DNA from: Ignisphaera sp.
GTDB taxonomy: Archaea > Thermoproteota > Thermoprotei_A > Sulfolobales > Ignisphaeraceae
Length of the DNA stretch: 45,148 nucleotides
NCBI GenBank assembly: GCA_038889075.1
Contig: JAWAHS010000012.1
Location: 1 to 45,148, forward strand
Direction: 5' to 3'
This document shows, piece by piece, positions 10,414 to 39,727 of the stretch; the stretch's first letter is position 1; each line of letters opens with the position of its first letter. Under the pieces are notes generated by a model, which searched no databases, was not told the origin of the DNA, and saw nothing but the letters and a program-made list of their open reading frames with translations. A program made the translations under genes and the position numbers.

Positions 10414-12252
10414 CTATGCACCTAGATAGGTGAGTGTTGCTATTAGTGCTGTTGCTGATAGTGTTGATAGTATTGCTGCGTGGAGGAATCCTGCTGCTAT
10501 TGTTGCCTGTGACGATTTTCCTGCTATCAGCCCCATTATGTAGGAGTTTACGATGTTTCCAATACCCATTACGAATAGAAGTGGTGTTGCCGTCGCCAGT
10601 GATATGTTTGCCATTGTGAGTAGCATGTAGAGTATTATTATAGGCATTGTTGCAAGCATTACTGCTCCAAAGTATGGGAGGATTACCTGTGTTCTCATTC
10701 TCCTCCTAGTCTCCTCCTCGAGCTCGCTTAGAATCTGGGTGAATCTAGCCAGCACATCTACTACCTCTGGCGACCCTCCACCAACAACAACGGAATCTGC
10801 TAGGAATCTAAGCGATGCTACTACAAACCACTCCTTTACACCCCTAAGGGCTCTTCTAAGAGCATCCTCTAGGCTAAAGCCTATGGAGAGTGCAGCTGCA
10901 GCTCTCGTAACGATTGGCGATAGCATTCTGTAGTCTCTTGCAGAGAGCATCACTATACACTTCTCTGGAGCTAGACCTGTCTTCCTAACCTCACTCAAAT
11001 CCCTTAGAAAATCTGCAGTTGCTCTAACAATACCTCTGTATCCCTTCACCATAGCTCTGTAGACGAGCCACGGAGGTAGGGAGAGGGTTAGAATAGCTAC
11101 AGCTAGCGATATCATTACGGACTTTACCACACCTAGATTTAAGACACCGAGAAGCAGATCCATACCACCGGTAGCTACAAGAGCAACTACAAATGCTGCT
11201 ATGGATATGGGTATAAATGTGATAAAGGTTGCATAAGCCCTTCCATAGTTTACAGGAGTTCTCGGCTGGTTTAGGTGGATTGCAAATGCGATAGCTATAC
11301 CCATTAGTGGAAGTACTAGGAAGTTGTACAGCGATGGCATTGTGATATCCATGGCTATAGCTATCTCTCCAGGGCTTCTCGCAGCCTGTGCAGCTGTAAT
11401 TGCACCAGAGACTGCAAAGAATACAAATAGTGTTACAGAGACTATTACACCGAATATGGTGTAGACCTCGAGATAGGATGCAAGTCTACCCATGATGGCC
11501 TTAATCTCGTTTGTCCTTGACTCAAAGAGCTCCCTAGTCCTAATCTCGAGATAGTGAACAACATCACCACCACTTCTAAGCGTTGTTGTATAGCCTAGCA
11601 TGAGATCTCTAAACCTTGTACTTGGATGTCGAATAGCGACATACTCTAGAGCAGTCAGTGGATCGTCTCCAAACATCCTAATCCTTGTCATAATCCTCTG
11701 GGCCTCTCTCCTAATACCTCTAAATATCTTAAGATGGGCAACTCTTTCAATAACCTTCTCAAAGCTGTAGCCACCTCTAACCATAGTCGATATGTATGCC
11801 ATGAAGAAGGGAAGCTCATTCTCAACCTCAGCTCTCCTCATAGAGGCTAGTATACCTGGGTATGAGAGTCTGTAGGAGAATACAACTATAGGCAGTACTA
11901 TGGCTATGAGGATGGCTATGACCATGTATGGAAGCGGTGGAGGTGCGAAGATGTATATGAGGACTGTAGTTAGTGTGGTGAATAGTGCTGTGAATAGGGT
12001 GAGGGCTATAGTTGATGCAGCGTATTTGACCGGGTGTATCGAGAGGCCTGCTCTATCTATAGCTTTATTAAGCTCAAATGTCTTTGCAAGTGCTCTTCCC
12101 CATGATTCAAAGAAGCTGAGGGAGAGAGCTGTAAAGACTTCCCCTACAGTTGGTGTTCTCCTTCTCATACCGGTTCTAGATTTCTGTAGGGCATCGGTAT
12201 CGGTACTGCCCTCCTTTTTCTTTCTTTTTATAAGCTGGAGCTTTGGTGCTAT
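10414..12252 (-). CDS. Type IV pilus assembly membrane platform protein (TadC/T2SS-F, two repeats)
   Basis: ENELPFFMAYI and DFLRDLSE T2SS-F domains, multiple TM helices. ORF-track ATG is at 12168; the frame is open to an SD-linked ATA at 12252. Confidence 0.9.
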   Translation of the reverse strand: MAPKLQLIKRKKKEGSTDTDALQKSRTGMRRRTPTVGEVFTALSLSFFESWGRALAKTFELNKAIDRAGLSIHPVKYAASTIALTLFTALFTTLTTVLIYIFAPPPLPYMVIAILIAIVLPIVVFSYRLSYPGILASMRRAEVENELPFFMAYISTMVRGGYSFEKVIERVAHLKIFRGIRREAQRIMTRIRMFGDDPLTALEYVAIRHPSTRFRDLMLGYTTTLRSGGDVVHYLEIRTRELFESRTNEIKAIMGRLASYLEVYTIFGVIVSVTLFVFFAVSGAITAAQAARSPGEIAIAMDITMPSLYNFLVLPLMGIAIAFAIHLNQPRTPVNYGRAYATFITFIPISIAAFVVALVATGGMDLLLGVLNLGVVKSVMISLAVAILTLSLPPWLVYRAMVKGYRGIVRATADFLRDLSEVRKTGLAPEKCIVMLSARDYRMLSPIVTRAAAALSIGFSLEDALRRALRGVKEWFVVASLRFLADSVVVGGGSPEVVDVLARFTQILSELEEETRRRMRTQVILPYFGAVMLATMPIIILYMLLTMANISLATATPLLFVMGIGNIVNSYIMGLIAGKSSQATIAAGFLHAAILSTLSATALIATLTYLGA

Positions 12253-28206: not shown

Positions 28207-28767
28207 CTACTCAATTAAAATACTATTACAGCCTGAAACCCCTATGAGAATCTCATTCAAATACCTCTCGAGACCTCCAGTATCGATATCCTTAGTCTTC
28301 TTAAAGACGCTCAGCACATCGATTATATGTAGAGTAGGCTTTTTAAGTACCTCATTCCAGGCTATAGTTACGCATCCACAGTCCCTAATGGTACCCCCTA
28401 TAGCATCAACCACTACATCAACCCCTAGATTTCCATCAAGCTCTTCAGACCCACTGTATACTACAACTATATGCCTATCGTCGTAGAGCTGTGGGGATAT
28501 ACTGTTTAGTATTGTTGATATCTGTCTCTCACTAAATAGTCTCACCATATACTCCAGCTCCATCTTCTTAGCAATATTTGTACCCCTATTAAATGAGGTA
28601 CGGGATGTGAGGAATGCTATTACATGACTCTGCCAGGGCATGTTGTAGAGCGATGTAGCTAGGCACTCTATCTTAGTAATACCAGCTTTAGCTAGCCTAC
28701 TACGTAGTTCTGAGCAGATCTCATCATATATATTGGAGCTACAGCGTATTGGTATTAGGAGTATCAG
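28207..28767 (-). CDS. cgi121: KEOPS complex subunit Cgi121
   Basis: SHVIAF…FNRGTNIAKKMELEYMVRL…RQIS motif; S17e/ThiS/ABCE1 neighbourhood. The frame is open 42 codons upstream of ATG 28641 to an SD-linked CTG. Confidence 0.75.
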   Translation of the reverse strand: MILLIPIRCSSNIYDEICSELRSRLAKAGITKIECLATSLYNMPWQSHVIAFLTSRTSFNRGTNIAKKMELEYMVRLFSERQISTILNSISPQLYDDRHIVVVYSGSEELDGNLGVDVVVDAIGGTIRDCGCVTIAWNEVLKKPTLHIIDVLSVFKKTKDIDTGGLERYLNEILIGVSGCNSILIE

Positions 28768-29057
28768 CTACGACCACCATGTGTAATAGGTACTAGCAGA
28801 ATCTCATCGTCATCATCAACGTACAGTTCATCAAGGTTATCAAAAACATTGATATCGATGCCGTTAACTAGCACCATTAAATCGTAGCTAGGAGCACCAT
28901 CATCATTTATTACGCTACTCAGAGCTTTAAAGTTCCTCCTCAGCTCTTTTAATAGAAGTTTTAGAGAGGCTCTACCGCCTATTGGAATATCTATGGAGGC
29001 TGCCCCAACATCGGTCTTGAATCTCCCTAAAAACTTTATCTTAACTATACATTTCAC
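28764..29057 (-). CDS. Ubiquitin-like MoaD/ThiS (Urm1/SAMP) protein
   Basis: VKIKFLG…VLVNGIDI…DEILLVPITHGG beta-grasp pattern; ends GG-RS. Confidence 0.9.
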   Translation of the reverse strand: MKCIVKIKFLGRFKTDVGAASIDIPIGGRASLKLLLKELRRNFKALSSVINDDGAPSYDLMVLVNGIDINVFDNLDELYVDDDDEILLVPITHGGRS

Positions 29058-33457: not shown

Positions 33458-33898
33458 ATGAGCTATACATCTAGATCTTTAGCTGGTGAACTTGCTAGGC
33501 TAGTTGACAAGAAAGTACTAGTTAGGCTTGTAGATGGTAAGGTGTATACGGGAAGACTCATGTCATTTGATCAAGCTTCTCTACATATTGTTTTAAGCGA
33601 TGTTGAGGGCTCTGATGGTGGAAAATACCATAGGGTTATAATAAACGGTTCGAGGATTTCCGAGATACTAGTACAGGAGCAGCCAACCTTTAGCGCTGAG
33701 GAATTTGCTTCAATGGTTTCACTGAAGCTTGGTTTAAGAAGTGATGTGATAAAGATTCTCCCAGATGTAAATGCGGTTATTATATATGATAGAATAAGGG
33801 TTACAGAAGCAGGTGTAGAGGGTTCTGGTAGTCTAGCTCAAAAAATATATGAGATTTATACTGAGTATATGGAGAGTAAGAAGAAGGGTGCTAGGTAG
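33458..33898 (+). CDS. Sm-like (Lsm, SmAP3-type) RNA-binding protein
   Basis: Sm1 (VLVRLVDGKVYTGRL…HIVL) and Sm2 (VIINGSRISEI) motifs plus a C-terminal domain. Confidence 0.92.
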   Translation: MSYTSRSLAGELARLVDKKVLVRLVDGKVYTGRLMSFDQASLHIVLSDVEGSDGGKYHRVIINGSRISEILVQEQPTFSAEEFASMVSLKLGLRSDVIKILPDVNAVIIYDRIRVTEAGVEGSGSLAQKIYEIYTEYMESKKKGAR

Positions 33899-33900
33899 AG

Positions 33901-35446
33901 TTGTTTCGAGATAAAGGAGATAGATTTAGCGGGGCGCATAGGTAGAATATCAACCAGACACGGATATATAGAAACACCATATATTTTTCCTGTAGTGGAT
34001 CCCATTTTAAGAAATCAGTATGTATCTCTAGATGAAATTCTCAGCATAGGATTCAATGGAATAATAACCAACGCCTACATTCTTAAAAAGCACAGAGGTG
34101 CTGTAGGCGATATACATGGATACCTAAACTTCAGTGGTGTGGTAATGACGGATTCGGGTGCCTATCAAATTCTAAGATATGGTGATGTAGAGGTCGGTAA
34201 TAGGGAGATAGTGATGTATCAGTGTGAGGCTAAGAGTGATATAGGTGTGATTCTCGATATACCTACATCAGCTGGTGTTGATAGAGAAACCGCGCTAAGA
34301 AGTGCTGATGAAACCTATAGAAGGGCTGTGGAGGCACTAGATGTAGTGGAGAGCTGTAGAGATACTCTATGGACGCTTCCAATACAAGGTGGTACGTATC
34401 TCGATATTCTAGAACACTATGCAGAAAAATCTGTTGAGCTATTCTATAGCGGCTATAGCCTATACGCGCTCGGGAGTCCAACAACACTACTAGAACAGTA
34501 TGATCTCGACAAAATAATTGATATGATATTTACAGTAAGAAGTGTAATACCCTTTTCAGCACCGCTCCATCTATTTGGAGCAGGCCATCCACTAATAGTA
34601 CCATTTGCTGTAGCCCTCGGCATCGATACAATGGATTCTGCCAGCTACATACTGTATGCAAAGGATGGTAGATATATGACCAGTAAGGGTACTTATAGAT
34701 TAGAGGATCTAGGCTACTTTCCATGTACATGTCCATTATGTTCAAAGCATTCGCCAGAGGATATTCAGAGGATGCCAAGGAGTAAGAGAGTCGAATTTCT
34801 AGCACTTCACAATCTCTACACCATACTGAGGGAGTTCAGAGAGGTGAAGCAAGCAATAAGAGAGGGAAGGCTATGGGAGTATATAGAGGGTAAGGCAGGC
34901 AGCCATCCGGCTGCTCGTAGAGCATTTGAGCAGCTCAAGAAATATGCAGAGTTCATATATAGGCACTCTCCAATAGTAAAGCCAAATGCTAAGGCGGTGT
35001 TCATACTATCAAGGGATTCTGTATACAACCCCAGGATTATGGTTCCACGAAGGAGAGTTGTTGAAAGATTCAATCCAAAGACTAGGTGTATAGATTTGGT
35101 ACCATATACTAGAGGAAGGATACCATTAGGTAATAGGAGTAGGGGCTCTGAGTGTCTAAGCTATATATACTTCCCTATACTAGGTGTAGCCCCTCTACAG
35201 CTGGCTAACCGATATCCATATTCACAGTTCGAATTTGGTTTAGAAGTAGCGGACGATATTATCGACGATCTCTCCTATCTAGTTTTTGAAATACTATTGA
35301 AGGTAAGGAGAATAGGTAGCACAATCACGGTAAACATGTATGTATGTCAAGGTGAAGAGTGGCAGGAGAAACTCTACAGCAGATTACTCAGTTTAGCAAC
35401 AGGAGAAATCGATATAAAAATGGAATTGAAGACCATCAACTGCTAG
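33901..35446 (+). CDS. tgtA: tRNA-guanine(15) transglycosylase (archaeosine TGT), start apparently frameshifted
   Basis: ITNAY, MTDSGAYQ, PIQGG, HLFGAGHP, DTMDSASY, CTCPLC…H zinc site. Conserved FEIKEIDLAGRIG…ETP begins at 33905 with no in-frame start. Confidence 0.93.
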
Positions 35447-35481: not shown

Positions 35482-36219
35482 CTATGTATGCATAACGCTT
35501 TCCTTCTTTTCTGCTGATTGTTGAAGCTGCATACTCTGGATGAGTTTTTCCATCTCTTCAATCTTTTCAGCATAGCTTACAAGCTCAGAAATATCTATAT
35601 ATATGTTTAGAATTGATGATACTACCCTTATAGCTGATGCTGCTGCTCTGTGGTCGATACTCTCCGGCTCCGTATAGGGAAAGATTGCTAAAGCTGGTAT
35701 ACCATGTTCCTCAAGAGCTAGGAGTAGCGATGCTAATGGTCCAACGATATACGCCCCCTTCATAAAATATGGTGCATCTAGACTCCTTTTACTCCATTTA
35801 GTCTTTAACCATCGGAACTCCTCTTTATTTTCACGGAATCTAACATCTAAACCTCCAATGAGAAACACCTCCTCAACATTAAGCATCTTAACCACGTTCA
35901 CGAAAGCCTTAATGTAGCTTACCATAAATCTTCTATCAGGATTTACTCTATTTAATAGAGCCACCACTCCTATGTTATCAAGTTGCTTCATAAATATCTC
36001 ATGCGGTTTACTGAAACCGTAATCCTCTATAGATGTGAAATCGACAACCATTGGAGTCTCTATAAAGCCCACTAATTCCATACTAAGCTTTGAAACCGTG
36101 TACCTCGTTGCTAGATATCCAACAGCTCCATATCCATGGAACCCTGTTATAAGTACCGAGGCCGTTTTTAGTGAAGCAGGCTTTACTATATTTACCTTGT
36201 ATCTCTTCATGTCGTACAA
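35482..36219 (-). CDS. PAC2-family proteasome assembly chaperone
   Basis: LITGFHGYGAVGYLA, FLIGGLD, IVGPLASLL; clustered with PAN. Confidence 0.88.
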   Translation of the reverse strand: MYDMKRYKVNIVKPASLKTASVLITGFHGYGAVGYLATRYTVSKLSMELVGFIETPMVVDFTSIEDYGFSKPHEIFMKQLDNIGVVALLNRVNPDRRFMVSYIKAFVNVVKMLNVEEVFLIGGLDVRFRENKEEFRWLKTKWSKRSLDAPYFMKGAYIVGPLASLLLALEEHGIPALAIFPYTEPESIDHRAAASAIRVVSSILNIYIDISELVSYAEKIEEMEKLIQSMQLQQSAEKKESVMHT

Positions 36220-36704
36220 CCCTCACTATATTTTTCTCGTATTTGAACAGCAGCACCTCTCGTTGCTGTAATCATGCTCTCATAGTCTAGAAGTGCTCTA
36301 CCAACACCTATTAAGCTATCATTCTCATCGACAATCATCACCTCATCGTAGGGTTTTATGCGTGGATCACCAGAAATAATGTGTCTTGAAAATACTGTAT
36401 AGCTATTCAGTATATCCTCCACGAATTCATTCAACACAACGACTCTGTAGCGTGGATATGGAAGTACTTTGTGTAGATATCTAGCAAATATAATATGGGG
36501 TACGATCATGTAATCGGAGGCTCTAATTGTAGCAAATATTCTGCCACCATCATAGAGTATGCATCTCATTCTCTTGGTATTTTTTGAATAGCATACACGC
36601 AACAAATTTCTATCTATCTCACTAAATATTCTTGATGATTCTGATCCATACTGATAGACTACCAGCTTTTCTAGCATATCGAGCACCTCTTCATTCAATT
36701 CCAT
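36207..36704 (-). CDS. PUA-domain protein (stand-alone TGT C2/PUA module)
   Basis: YQYG…YSKNTKRMR…ATIRASD plus VFSRHI…DPRIKPYDEV…GVGRA PUA motif. Confidence 0.88.
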   Translation of the reverse strand: MELNEEVLDMLEKLVVYQYGSESSRIFSEIDRNLLRVCYSKNTKRMRCILYDGGRIFATIRASDYMIVPHIIFARYLHKVLPYPRYRVVVLNEFVEDILNSYTVFSRHIISGDPRIKPYDEVMIVDENDSLIGVGRALLDYESMITATRGAAVQIREKYSEGCTT

Positions 36705-36734
36705 ACACTCTAAATTGATCAGAAACGACCACCC

Positions 36735-37952
36735 TTACAGATGGTATCTATTGAATTCTTCTACATCTCTATTGGAAATCCTTGATGTGTAGAGGGATGT
36801 ATAGGGTCTATACCGCTCCTTCATCACCTTCCTTATAGCTTCTATGAAATCCTCTCTATAGACTATCTCTCTACCCATTCTTATCGCTCTTAACGCAGCC
36901 TCGGTACATATAGTCTTTATATCAGCACCTGTAGCACCCTCTGTAAGCCTGGATAGTTCAACTAAATCAACATCGCTGGATAGAGGCATTTTCCTTGTGT
37001 GTATCTTAAATATATCGTATCTTCCTCTTAGATTTGGAAGGGGAATCGCTATGATTCTATCAAATCTGCCAGGTCTTAGAATAGCTGGATCTAGAACATC
37101 TATTCTATTAGTAGTTGCCAATACCTTAACATTGTCGAGGGGATCGAAACCATCTAACTCCGCTAAAAGCTGTGTCAATGTTCTATGGATCTCCCTTTCA
37201 CCACTTGTACCAACATCAAGCCTCTTTGAGGCTATAGCGTCTATCTCATCTATTAATACGATAGATGGTGCTTTCCTTCTAGCCAAACTGAATATCTCCT
37301 TAACTACCCTTGCACCCTCGCCAATGAACTTCTGTGCCAGTTCGGAAGCAACAATTCTTATAAAGGTTGCATTAACCTCGTGCGCCACAGCCTTTGCTAA
37401 CAATGTTTTACCACAGCCCGGGGGGCCATATAGGAGTACACCTTTCGGAGGTTCTATACCTATAACCCGGAATATGTGTGTATTCTTTAGCGGAAGCTCA
37501 ACAGCCTCCCTCAACTCCAGTATCTGCTCATCTAAGCCACCTATATCACTGTAGGATACATTAGGTCTTTCGATAACCTCAAACGCCTTTACATACGGAT
37601 CCTCAATCCTAGGCAGAACCTCAACAATAGCTGAACCCCTCTGGTTCAACGCTACTGAAGCCCCTGGCTTCAGCAAATTCTTATCAATCGTCTCAAGTAT
37701 TTGAACAATAAGAATAGGTCCTGAGGAGCTTTTAACCAGAGCTCTACCATCGGGTAGAACCTCCAGTAATGTAGCCTCTATTAGCGGTGGCGCCATAAGT
37801 TTTTCAACTTGGGTCTTGTAGTACTCGAGTTCCTCTCTATACTTCTCTACGATCTCTCTTAGTAGCAGAATCTCCGATTCTTGCTCCTTGATCTTCAGAC
37901 CCGCTCTAGTGTATATATCTTCTACTTCTCCCTCGTTATCATCGATGCTCAT
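36735..37952 (-). CDS. pan: Proteasome-activating nucleotidase
   Basis: Coiled coil + [31 protein letters not shown]; C-terminal YHL. Confidence 0.95.
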
Positions 37953-38048
37953 TTAGTACACCACTTATGTAAAACTTACAACGGTATAAAGCTAAAAACA
38001 GTTTTTCTCAAAAATACTACTAAGTCTGAGTAGCTAAGGTGGTTACAG

Positions 38049-38612
38049 ATAAAGGAGTTCATATACTGTGATATGTGTGGAGCACCTATTGAGAAGGGCA
38101 AGGAGCACCACGTAAGTATAGAGGGATCTACGCTTACAGTATGCAATAACTGCTTTTCACGTATAGAGTCTAGAGGTGGAAAGAAGCAACAGGATACTCA
38201 GCAGGGTACTGTAAAATCAAAATCTACAGGCTATCTACAGCATTCTCCAATGAGTAGACAGGTTAAACAGCAGCCGACACGGGGTGCGGTCTCTACCAAT
38301 AATCCAACTAGATCCACGGTTTCCCAGAATATGGAGCTTGTAGAGGATTATGCTGAAAGAATTCGCAGAGCTAGGGAGAAGCTGGGCTGGAGCCAGTCTA
38401 TACTGGCTGGTAGAGTAAAGGTGAGTGAAAATATTGTGAAGAGAATTGAGAGTGGTAAGCTTCGTCCAACTCTAGAACTTGCCAGAAAGCTTGAGGAGGT
38501 TCTCGGTATAAAGCTTCTTATGCCCTCCATTGAGGAGGAGCTTAAGCAGCAGAAGGTACAGAAATATGTAACCCTAGGCGAGATAGTTAACGTTAAAGTA
38601 GATGATAAGTAG
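38049..38612 (+). CDS. mbf1: Multiprotein bridging factor aMBF1
   Basis: Zinc ribbon YCDMCG…VCNNC plus HTH (IRRAREKLGWSQ…IESGKLRP) and TLGE. The first Cys lies upstream of ATG 38073; proposed start is ATA 38049. Confidence 0.92.
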   Translation: MKEFIYCDMCGAPIEKGKEHHVSIEGSTLTVCNNCFSRIESRGGKKQQDTQQGTVKSKSTGYLQHSPMSRQVKQQPTRGAVSTNNPTRSTVSQNMELVEDYAERIRRAREKLGWSQSILAGRVKVSENIVKRIESGKLRPTLELARKLEEVLGIKLLMPSIEEELKQQKVQKYVTLGEIVNVKVDDK

Positions 38613-38632
38613 TAGAGGGTAAGGTATACCGG

Positions 38633-39727
38633 ATGGAATCAGCGATACTCATAGTTAAGACAGACTCCATGGACAATATTGAGGAGGTTGTAGCCCTCGT
38701 AAAGGAGGCTGGATTATATCCAAAGGAGATTGTAAGTGTAAGGAAAGTTGATAATGCATGTTTTTTAACACCTGGTAAGATAAGCAGGCTGAAGCATCTT
38801 ATAGAAAGCAATTCGATTAAGAAAATATGCATCTATGCTGAGCTGAAGCCCAGACAGGTAACTTGTTTAGTTAAAGAATTGAAAGTAGATGTGATTGACA
38901 AGGTAATGCTAATTCTAACAATATTCCAACAGCATGCAGGATCTAAGGAGGCTCTACTACAGATTGAAATGGCTAGATTGAGGCACGAACTACCCCTTAT
39001 CCGTGATTGGATTCGAAGAGTTAAAATGGGAGAGCTACCCGGCTTCCTAAGCATGGGACGCTATGCTGTGGATGTCTACTATAAACACATCAAGCGGCGT
39101 ATAGCTAGAATAAGTAGGGAGCTTGAGAATCTTAGAACTCGAAGGTCTATAGAACATGAGAAGAGGAAATCTGCAGGATATGTACACATAGCAATAGTGG
39201 GCTATACAAATGCTGGAAAGACAACACTATTCAATGCACTTACAAATCTAAATAAGCCAACCGGAAATGAGATGTTTACAACACTATCAGCTAAATCATA
39301 CGCTATTAGGCTATGCAATACGACATTCGTCCTTATAGATACAATAGGATTTGTAAGAGATATACCAATCGGCATTATAGAGTCGTTTAGAGCTGTCCTA
39401 GAGGAGATAAGCAACGCGGATATGATTTTCCTCGTCATTGATGGTAGTAAAGGTTTAGAAAAACTCCTTACAGAAATAGATACCTCATTGAATATTTTAA
39501 AGGATGTTGGCGCTTTAGGTAAACCTGTATTCGTTATAATAAACAAGATAGACCTCTTAGATGCCGTTAGCATAGATGAGTATAGGAGGACTGTGGAGGA
39601 TTACATCAAGAAACATATAGTTTCACTAATTGATGTGATACCTCTATCAGCTTTAAAGAAGATAAATATAGATACTGTTAAGGATAGCCTATGTCGCTAT
39701 GTCCAGAAGAACGCGACATACAGTTAG
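38633..39727 (+). CDS. hflX: GTPase HflX
   Basis: ILTIFQQHAGSKEALLQIEMA, GYTNAGKT, FTTL, DTIGF, NKID. Confidence 0.95.
   Translation: MESAILIVKTDSMDNIEEVVALVKEAGLYPKEIVSVRKVDNACFLTPGKISRLKHLIESNSIKKICIYAELKPRQVTCLVKELKVDVIDKVMLILTIFQQHAGSKEALLQIEMARLRHELPLIRDWIRRVKMGELPGFLSMGRYAVDVYYKHIKRRIARISRELENLRTRRSIEHEKRKSAGYVHIAIVGYTNAGKTTLFNALTNLNKPTGNEMFTTLSAKSYAIRLCNTTFVLIDTIGFVRDIPIGIIESFRAVLEEISNADMIFLVIDGSKGLEKLLTEIDTSLNILKDVGALGKPVFVIINKIDLLDAVSIDEYRRTVEDYIKKHIVSLIDVIPLSALKKINIDTVKDSLCRYVQKNATYS

Follow-up and report, generated by a model that had tools for sequence, protein, structure and literature searches.

The mbf1 locus and its start codon

The window, i.e. the whole stretch of 45,148 nt analyzed here, is one contig (C12) of a metagenome-type genome of a hot-spring Ignisphaera of 1.95 Mb in 25 contigs with a G+C content of 39.4% (labeled G000 in this text). 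It carries the mbf1 gene, which has the following features in its upstream and coding region:

37983..38016, no strand assigned: intergenic block GGTATAAAGCTAAAAACAGTTTTTC..., conserved in the genus, which separates mbf1 from the divergent PAN ATPase gene; probably the promoter region
38031..38033, + strand: TAG that closes the mbf1 frame upstream, found by reading the sequence
38037..38042, + strand: Shine-Dalgarno (SD) site AGGTGG, complementary to the 16S rRNA 3' end and newly placed with respect to the nearest relatives
38043..38045, + strand: TTA where G009, G012 and G014 have their TTG start; no longer a start in G000
38049..38051, + strand: ATA, the proposed mbf1 start codon, 7 nt after GGTG
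38049..38612, + strand: proposed mbf1 reading frame (187 aa plus stop) with an N-terminal zinc ribbon and a C-terminal HTH_3 domain
38067, 38076, 38142 and 38151, + strand: zinc-ribbon Cys codons of mbf1
38073..38075, + strand: first canonical ATG, located between both Cys of the first CxxC pair; the start in public gene predictions

No known RNA elements were detected in the mbf1 leader, and an Rfam search over the whole window matched just two tRNAs.

According to the original prediction, mbf1 needs a non-canonical start, since its first zinc-ribbon Cys is encoded upstream of any canonical codon. Direct reading confirmed this arrangement. Following the TAG at 38031, the frame continues CTA AGG TGG TTA CAG ATA AAG GAG TTC ATA TAC TGT GAT ATG TGT GGA. 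It contains no ATG, GTG or TTG before the ATG at 38073, which is where ORF calling starts, and the first Cys codon (38067) precedes this ATG. The ATA at 38049 is one base away from AUG and lies 6 nt after AGGTGG (with ttacag between), which corresponds to 7 nt after the GGTG core. The 3' end of the G000 16S rRNA reads GGATCACCTCCT, so that AGGTG in the mbf1 leader is a true complement of the anti-SD.

The 187-aa protein predicted from the ATA scores 144.9 bits against the NCBIfam model TIGR00270 (the aMBF1 equivalog), well above the cut-off of 110. The alignment runs from residue 6 to 183 and covers the profile completely (positions 1–159 of 159), and its position 1 is the Tyr that precedes the first Cys. 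Pfam HTH_3 is found at residues 105–156 (E 2e-11), the C-terminal Cro-like helix-turn-helix expected of the family. If translation starts upstream of 38067, both Cys pairs (CDMC and CNNC) are present, while the ATG form has three Cys. A zinc ribbon with two Cys pairs is described for all archaeal MBF1s in the excerpted text of PMC3062615, and the first Cys is kept in 30 of 30 mbf1 orthologue loci. By score, zinc ribbon and helix-turn-helix, the ATA-started MBF1 would qualify as a member of TIGR00270.

With a metagenome-type assembly of 25 contigs as source, the ATA and TTA might be assembly or sequencing errors, or mbf1 might be a pseudogene that is decaying in this strain. However, three further studies provide contigs over 37850–38650 (X3, X4 and X9), and none of these differs at 38031–38075; one of them, X9, is from a variant strain, whose 6 differences and 3-nt deletion all lie at other positions. 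The presence of the same letters in three other metagenome assemblies argues that the ATA context is no sequencing or assembly error, and that an ATG has not been misread here. The mbf1 ORF is intact and exceeds the equivalog cut-off, and the same type of start occurs in a complete, single-contig Ignisphaera genome (G015, see below). Both error and decay therefore seem extremely unlikely. A metatranscriptome contig (X15) spans the region from 38038 onward into the next gene, a weak indication that the mbf1 SD and ATA are present in RNA; as one assembled contig, it cannot define the 5' end.

The three nearest species, with 71–76% identity, are G009, G012 and G014. There, GGGTG or AGGTG is followed after 7–8 nt by TTG CAG GTA/CCA AAG GAG; the TTG start of these species thus lies two codons upstream of the G000 ATA, behind its own SD. 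The homologous letters in G000 are ...GAGTAGCTAAGGTGG TTA CAG ATA AAG GAG. Here the former SD has been lost and TTA has replaced TTG, while a new AAGGTGG is found 7 nt before the ATA, a codon that was formerly GTA. Judged by this alignment, the mbf1 start has apparently migrated in recent evolution and not decayed. The sequence KEF[IV]YCD is kept in all three relatives with synonymous changes (GAG/GAA, TTC/TTT, TAC/TAT), and among the four species the codons between ATA and ATG also display conservative I/V changes and one whole-codon indel. This pattern of synonymous, conservative and whole-codon changes indicates that the seven codons between ATA and ATG are coding. The codon that corresponds to the ATA is CTG, with an SD before it, in 9 of 16 Ignisphaera species, and in five of the 16 (G000 and four CTG species) there is no ATG, GTG or TTG before the first Cys of mbf1. 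In G040, which belongs to another family (locus L026), GGTGAT is followed by ATA at SD spacing, and an in-frame GTG lies inside the SD itself; this is possibly another ATA start.

These comparisons also bear on the possibility that translation begins at the ATG at 38073, leaving a zinc ribbon that lacks its first Cys and is either degenerate or completed by another ligand. This ATG is the sole canonical codon and the start of the public gene predictions, and a GGAG at 38054–38057, 15 nt before it, could serve as a weak and badly spaced SD. However, the codons upstream of it display the coding pattern of change just described, and they include the Cys that is kept in all 30 orthologues. The good SD, AGGTGG, is 31 nt away from this ATG and 7 nt from the ATA at 38049. 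The ATG codon is ATA in G009 and G014 and hence no conserved start. We regard initiation at 38073 as unlikely.

Initiation might also occur at another non-canonical codon. TTA 38043 is orthologous to the functional TTG start of the relatives, but it differs from AUG in two positions and abuts the SD, only 1 nt after GGTG. A second ATA at 38061 would still include the first Cys; it is located 19 nt after GGTG, outside the 5–10 nt range of ATG genes, and is GTG/GTA or deleted in the relatives, so that it is no conserved start either. A start at one of these two codons appears very unlikely. ATA 38049 is most likely the start codon of mbf1, and the N-terminus of the protein is deduced from sequence comparison. 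SD geometry, the relatives and the genome-wide tallies presented below all support the start that had been predicted.

In the mechanism that we propose, the AGGTGG of a short mRNA leader would pair with the 16S rRNA 3' end and thereby set the P site 7 nt further on. An ordinary Met-tRNAi with a CAU anticodon would accept AUA with a mismatch in the third position, and the product would be a 187-aa aMBF1 with all four zinc-ribbon cysteines. In the G000 lineage, the old SD and TTG would have decayed, a new SD would have arisen and GTA would have become ATA. mbf1 would then be one case of a habit of the genome and genus, in which several per cent of SD-led genes, essential ones included, use CUG, AUA, AUU or ACG. 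Presumably, these very codons are where the ribosome initiates, with insertion of Met, and a lowered stringency of start selection (aIF1/aIF1A) may lie behind the habit.

Near-cognate codons at SD spacing in the genome

In G000, GGTG peaks 5–10 nt before the first ATG of long ORFs. The original prediction had proposed a genome-wide tally of the codons that follow GGTG. We ran it on 2907 stop-to-stop ORFs with a minimum length of 100 codons, taking each GGTG that precedes the first canonical start and dropping 487 GGTG with a canonical start 3–12 nt downstream. Three codons stood out in frame at a spacing of 7–8 nt:

ATA after GGTG: in frame at 7–8 nt 28/319; out of frame at 7–8 nt 3/344; in-frame control spacers 20/591
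CTG after GGTG: in frame at 7–8 nt 17/319; out of frame at 7–8 nt 9/344; in-frame control spacers 2/591
ATT after GGTG: in frame at 7–8 nt 19/319; out of frame at 7–8 nt 4/344; in-frame control spacers 17/591

For ATA, the enrichment has a Fisher p of 5e-7 against the out-of-frame positions and of 6e-4 against the control spacers. ATA, CTG, ATT and ACG taken together account for 68 of 319 in-frame codons, compared with 19 of 344 out of frame (p 8e-10) and 44 of 591 at control spacers (p 3e-9). ATC and ACG individually were not enriched in this in-frame tally at 7–8 nt in G000.

A second line of evidence comes from starts defined by orthologues. All stop-to-stop ORFs of G000 were compared by blastp with those of G015, the complete genome (a single contig of 1,875,953 bp) of a second Ignisphaera species, which yielded 1508 pairs after removal of antisense shadow ORFs. 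We discarded 23 pairs with masked N, 9 from the rRNA region, 121 that matched only within the partner and 4 with short alignments. In 1269 of the remaining 1351 pairs, the alignment extends at most 4 residues upstream beyond the first canonical start. It begins at least 5 residues upstream in 74 pairs with at least 25% identity and in 8 with lower identity. Upon inspection, some extensions of 5–8 residues proved to be conserved SD sites read in frame (e.g. AGG TGT as 'RC'), and we therefore limited the counts to extensions of at least 10 residues. The extension of mbf1 comprises just 8 codons, a length at which such artefacts occur, so the case for this gene rests on the conserved Cys and the synonymous changes.

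In 43 of the 1351 pairs, the alignment extends by 10 or more residues upstream beyond the first canonical start. For 21 of these genes, a GGTG precedes, by 7–8 nt, an in-frame codon that lies no further downstream than the first aligned residue. This codon is CTG (9), ATA (5), ATT (3) or ACG (2) in 19 of the 21 genes. The two exceptions, arcTGT and g0_3078, have no near-cognate at SD spacing, meaning that the near-cognate model does not cover every case. About ten of the G000 near-cognates fall precisely on an ATG, GTG or TTG in the alignment with the G015 orthologue (IPRFNID with MPKFAID, for instance), and five genes have a near-cognate start in both genomes. The mirror analysis in G015 gave 33 long extensions in 1211 pairs, 15 of them with an SD, and in 11 of these 15 the codon is ATA (6), CTG (2), ATT (2) or ACG (1). 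In a stricter comparison, the G000 codons aligned with SD-led canonical starts of G015 (n=228) are ATG in 101, TTG in 29 and GTG in 19 cases; ATA, ATT and CTG occur 3 times each, no more often than AAA (7) or TTT (5). This comparison had little power, and starts shift often at this divergence.

g0_3078 (G000 C9:7445) encodes a 412-aa protein whose conservation between G000 and G015 reaches about 50 residues further upstream than any canonical start in either genome; the codon at SD spacing is CTT/GGA, which is no near-cognate.

Protein domains point in the same direction. In 11 of 20 candidates scanned with Pfam, the domain begins (at profile position 1–8) upstream of the first canonical start:

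CMP kinase: CTG start
dTMP kinase: CTG start
HAD hydrolase: ATA start
ABC ATPase: CTG start
Obg-like GTPase: ATT start
NTPase_1: ATA start
aldo-keto reductase: ATT start
L7Ae/L30e-family protein: ATA start
ERCC4 nuclease: ACG start
S-Me-THD protein: CTG start
Mpt_N protein: ATT start

The domains of the other nine start downstream and thus decide nothing. The portions upstream of the first canonical start comprise the P-loops of the CMP and dTMP kinases, the DxDGT motif of the HAD hydrolase, the Walker A motif of the ABC ATPase and G1 of the GTPase; a start at a canonical codon would cut off P-loops or the HAD nucleophile motif. Taken as comparative evidence, these data support at least 20 orthologue-validated genes of G000 with predicted starts at CTG, ATA, ATT or ACG.

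Among first starts with GGTG at 7–8 nt, we counted 129 ATG, 57 GTG, 65 TTG and 20 validated near-cognates including mbf1, so that near-cognates make up about 7% of such starts in G000. The claim that near-cognate initiation is routine is supported by at least 20 genes in G000 and by the 11 of 15 in G015. The recurrent use of ATA and CTG that had been proposed holds for both codons, but the set is wider and also includes ATT and ACG. It had further been suggested that a strong SD is needed. This part was not supported: SD matches average 5.45 nt for near-cognates (n=20), 5.04 for ATG (n=129), 5.33 for GTG and 4.98 for TTG, i.e. the SDs of near-cognate genes are ordinary and not clearly stronger than those of ATG genes.

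The habit had been regarded as a trait of the lineage. This is true of the genus, but confinement to it is not supported by G034, an outgroup genome from another family, for which our tally covers 919,206 of 1,319,206 bases. In frame at 7–8 nt, ACG and ATA each account for 8 of 97 codons in G034. Out of frame the numbers are 1 of 106 for ACG and 0 of 106 for ATA, and at control spacers 1 of 192 and 3 of 192, respectively. Examples are an ATA at the IEYIYASL N-terminus of an acidic stalk protein and a CTG on the Rio1 kinase. The orthologue test with extensions of at least 10 residues, a more distant comparison in this case, validated 2 genes of 618 pairs, both with CTG. The in-frame enrichment of ACG and ATA suggests that the near-cognate habit exists outside Ignisphaera, and we have dropped the idea of an Ignisphaera-specific habit.

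Initiation machinery and relation to known systems

An unusual initiator tRNA had been considered as a possible cause. The G000 initiator tRNA proved to be ordinary: it has A1:U72, its anticodon stem is rich in G:C, and the anticodon is CAU. Over the first 60 nt it does not differ from that of G015, and the molecule is nearly identical in G000, G015 and G034. We therefore rejected this explanation. The gene (C17:4984-5090) has an intron in the T-loop region, whereas the intron in G034 is located around the anticodon loop. The 16S rRNA 3' end occurs twice on the minus strand of the G000 contig C19, at about 5066 and 5293 from the contig end and 227 nt apart, possibly because of an assembly duplication.

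The original prediction had also pointed to aIF1 and aIF1A. aIF1 is described as a discriminator against non-AUG codons, in Sulfolobus solfataricus and Pyrococcus abyssi, in excerpts of PMC6237735, and as such also in excerpts of PMC8211752. The G000 aIF1 gene (C1:2029-2244) starts at a normal ATG. In loop 1 of the protein, the residue at the position of P. abyssi Y32 is M in G000 and G012, L in G015, V in G017 and G018 and I in G020 and G021. One of these residues is thus present in 7 of 8 genomes of Ignisphaera's family; the eighth, G019, has Y/F/W, as do 14 of 14 genomes of other families. According to the same excerpts of PMC6237735, Y32A in P. abyssi aIF1 abolishes the synergy between mRNA and factor binding. 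G034 has F in loop 1 and yet uses near-cognates, so the exchange in loop 1 can be a modifier at best.

The aIF1A gene itself has a predicted weak start. An SD followed by ATA and the basic tail P-D-K-K-K-K is found in G000 (C1:267665-267994) and in G015 (1057-1380 of its locus, minus strand). In a survey of metagenome loci, 31 of 35 could be read: all 12 related ones (60–100% identity) have SD and ATA, while the 19 more distant ones, several of which are near-identical to each other, start with TTG (13), GTG (4) or ATG (2). The aIF1A gene of G034 starts at ATG. Although ATG is only one transition away from ATA, it was never seen in the aIF1A clade, which suggests that the weak start is selected. 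The Rio1 kinase gene directly downstream (G000 C1:267998) has SD and CTG in G000, G015 and G034, which makes this start conserved across families.

Weak-start feedback is known for bacterial IF3 and eukaryotic eIF1; the E. coli infC gene, which encodes IF3, has an AUU start codon and is autoregulated. The Ignisphaera case is similar in that the gene of a start-proofreading factor carries a weak near-cognate start, and that this start is conserved in the factor's own gene. It differs in that the factor is aIF1A, a homologue of IF1/eIF1A and not of IF3, and feedback for aIF1A is hypothetical. A tentative scenario, which we consider possible rather than probable, is that stringency has been deliberately lowered in the family of Ignisphaera, through feedback on the AUA start of aIF1A together with loss of the loop-1 aromatic residue of aIF1 (a stabilizer of the 30S:mRNA complex). 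CUG, AUA, AUU and ACG would then tune dozens of genes, and starts would drift freely between canonical and near-cognate codons.

The archaeal start codons are given as AUG, GUG and UUG in excerpts of PMC4705826. Near-cognate starts resemble GUG and UUG starts in that Met-tRNAi would act, with the help of an SD, on a codon one base away from AUG, and CUG completes the NUG series. Unlike these, the Ignisphaera codons also include mismatches in the third position (AUA, AUU) and in the second (ACG), apparently as primary starts of essential genes. Near-cognate initiation in eukaryotes involves the same codons (CUG, ACG, AUA and AUU) and homologous fidelity factors (eIF1/eIF1A). In Ignisphaera, however, the codon would be placed by SD pairing and not by scanning and a Kozak context, and the near-cognates would be the only starts of their genes and not a source of isoforms. 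In open-access full text, our searches brought up no account of near-cognate starts used throughout an archaeal lineage. In Haloferax volcanii, near-cognates make up about 30% of the putative alternative initiation sites obtained by ribosome profiling, and the authors set them aside to limit false positives, as stated in excerpts of PMC7261190. The sites described there are alternative ones, whereas we propose main starts in a crenarchaeal genus on comparative evidence.

If the interpretation is correct, start-codon fidelity would be tunable between archaeal lineages, and Ignisphaera would offer a natural system for studying proofreading by aIF1 and aIF1A, a core shared with eukaryotes. With its conserved AUA start, aIF1A would provide the first case in archaea comparable to the weak-start feedback of IF3 and eIF1.

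Annotation and other genes of the window

Gene callers assume AUG, GUG and UUG alone for archaea. If CUG, AUA, AUU or ACG serve as starts in several per cent of the SD-led genes of this group of hyperthermophiles, many proteins predicted from their genomes and metagenomes would be truncated, some of them without their catalytic motifs. The systematic mis-annotation that had been anticipated is evident for mbf1: the protein is present in public collections in its 179-aa ATG form, on 21 contigs, and 4 of 4 cluster members are no longer than 179 aa. It is not uniform, however. For the CMP kinase, truncated forms of 159 aa exist beside 182-aa NCBI entries that begin with M-D-R-N-K, which implies that the CTG start was called there.

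Of the genes in the window, 37 have an orthologue pair, and a near-cognate start is well supported for two of them, ATA for mbf1 and CTG for a cgi121-like gene. The following genes are relevant here:

28207..28767, − strand: cgi121-like gene, 186 aa; CTG start at 28767, with GGTG at 28775–28778, 7 nt before
10414..12252, − strand: tadC/FlaJ-like membrane protein (T2SSF); candidate ATA start at 12252, with GGTG 7 nt before
36210..36722, − strand: TGT_C2+PUA protein; candidate CTG start at 36722, with GGTG 7 nt before and the first ATG 6 codons downstream
33899..35446, + strand: archaeosine tRNA-guanine transglycosylase (arcTGT)

Three near-cognate genes had been proposed for the window, namely mbf1, cgi121 and tadC. 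The first two are supported, and the ATA at 12252 of the tadC-like gene, whose first ATG lies 28 codons downstream, is a plausible candidate start. The candidate CTG of the TGT_C2+PUA gene is plausible but ambiguous. As for the name of the cgi121-like gene, the Cgi121 model NF011465 matches the protein with 26.3 bits (E 6e-6), below its curated cut-off of 40, and Pfam gave no match; the label as KEOPS subunit Cgi121 is nevertheless likely.

arcTGT, one of the two exceptions mentioned above, lies behind an Lsm gene whose TAG is in the arcTGT frame. Canonical starts are missing over 32 codons in G000 and 35 in G015, and there is no near-cognate at SD spacing; in the start region (33896–33915), neither a canonical nor a near-cognate start precedes the conserved C-F-E-I-K. 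The SD points at AGT in G000, whereas the codon concerned is GTT in G015. Both genomes share a TTG in the +2 frame with TTT C behind it. Speculatively, a start at this TTG with a +1 slip would give M-F-E-I-K. Read-through of the stop codon seems unlikely, since the upstream ORF encodes an unrelated Lsm protein.

The minus-strand starts of the cgi121-like gene and, if the candidate ATA is used, of the tadC-like gene overlap the stop codon of the gene upstream, as CTGA at 28764–28767 (TGA) and ATAG at 12249–12252 (TAG), respectively. These overlaps look like near-cognate counterparts of the usual ATGA coupling overlap.
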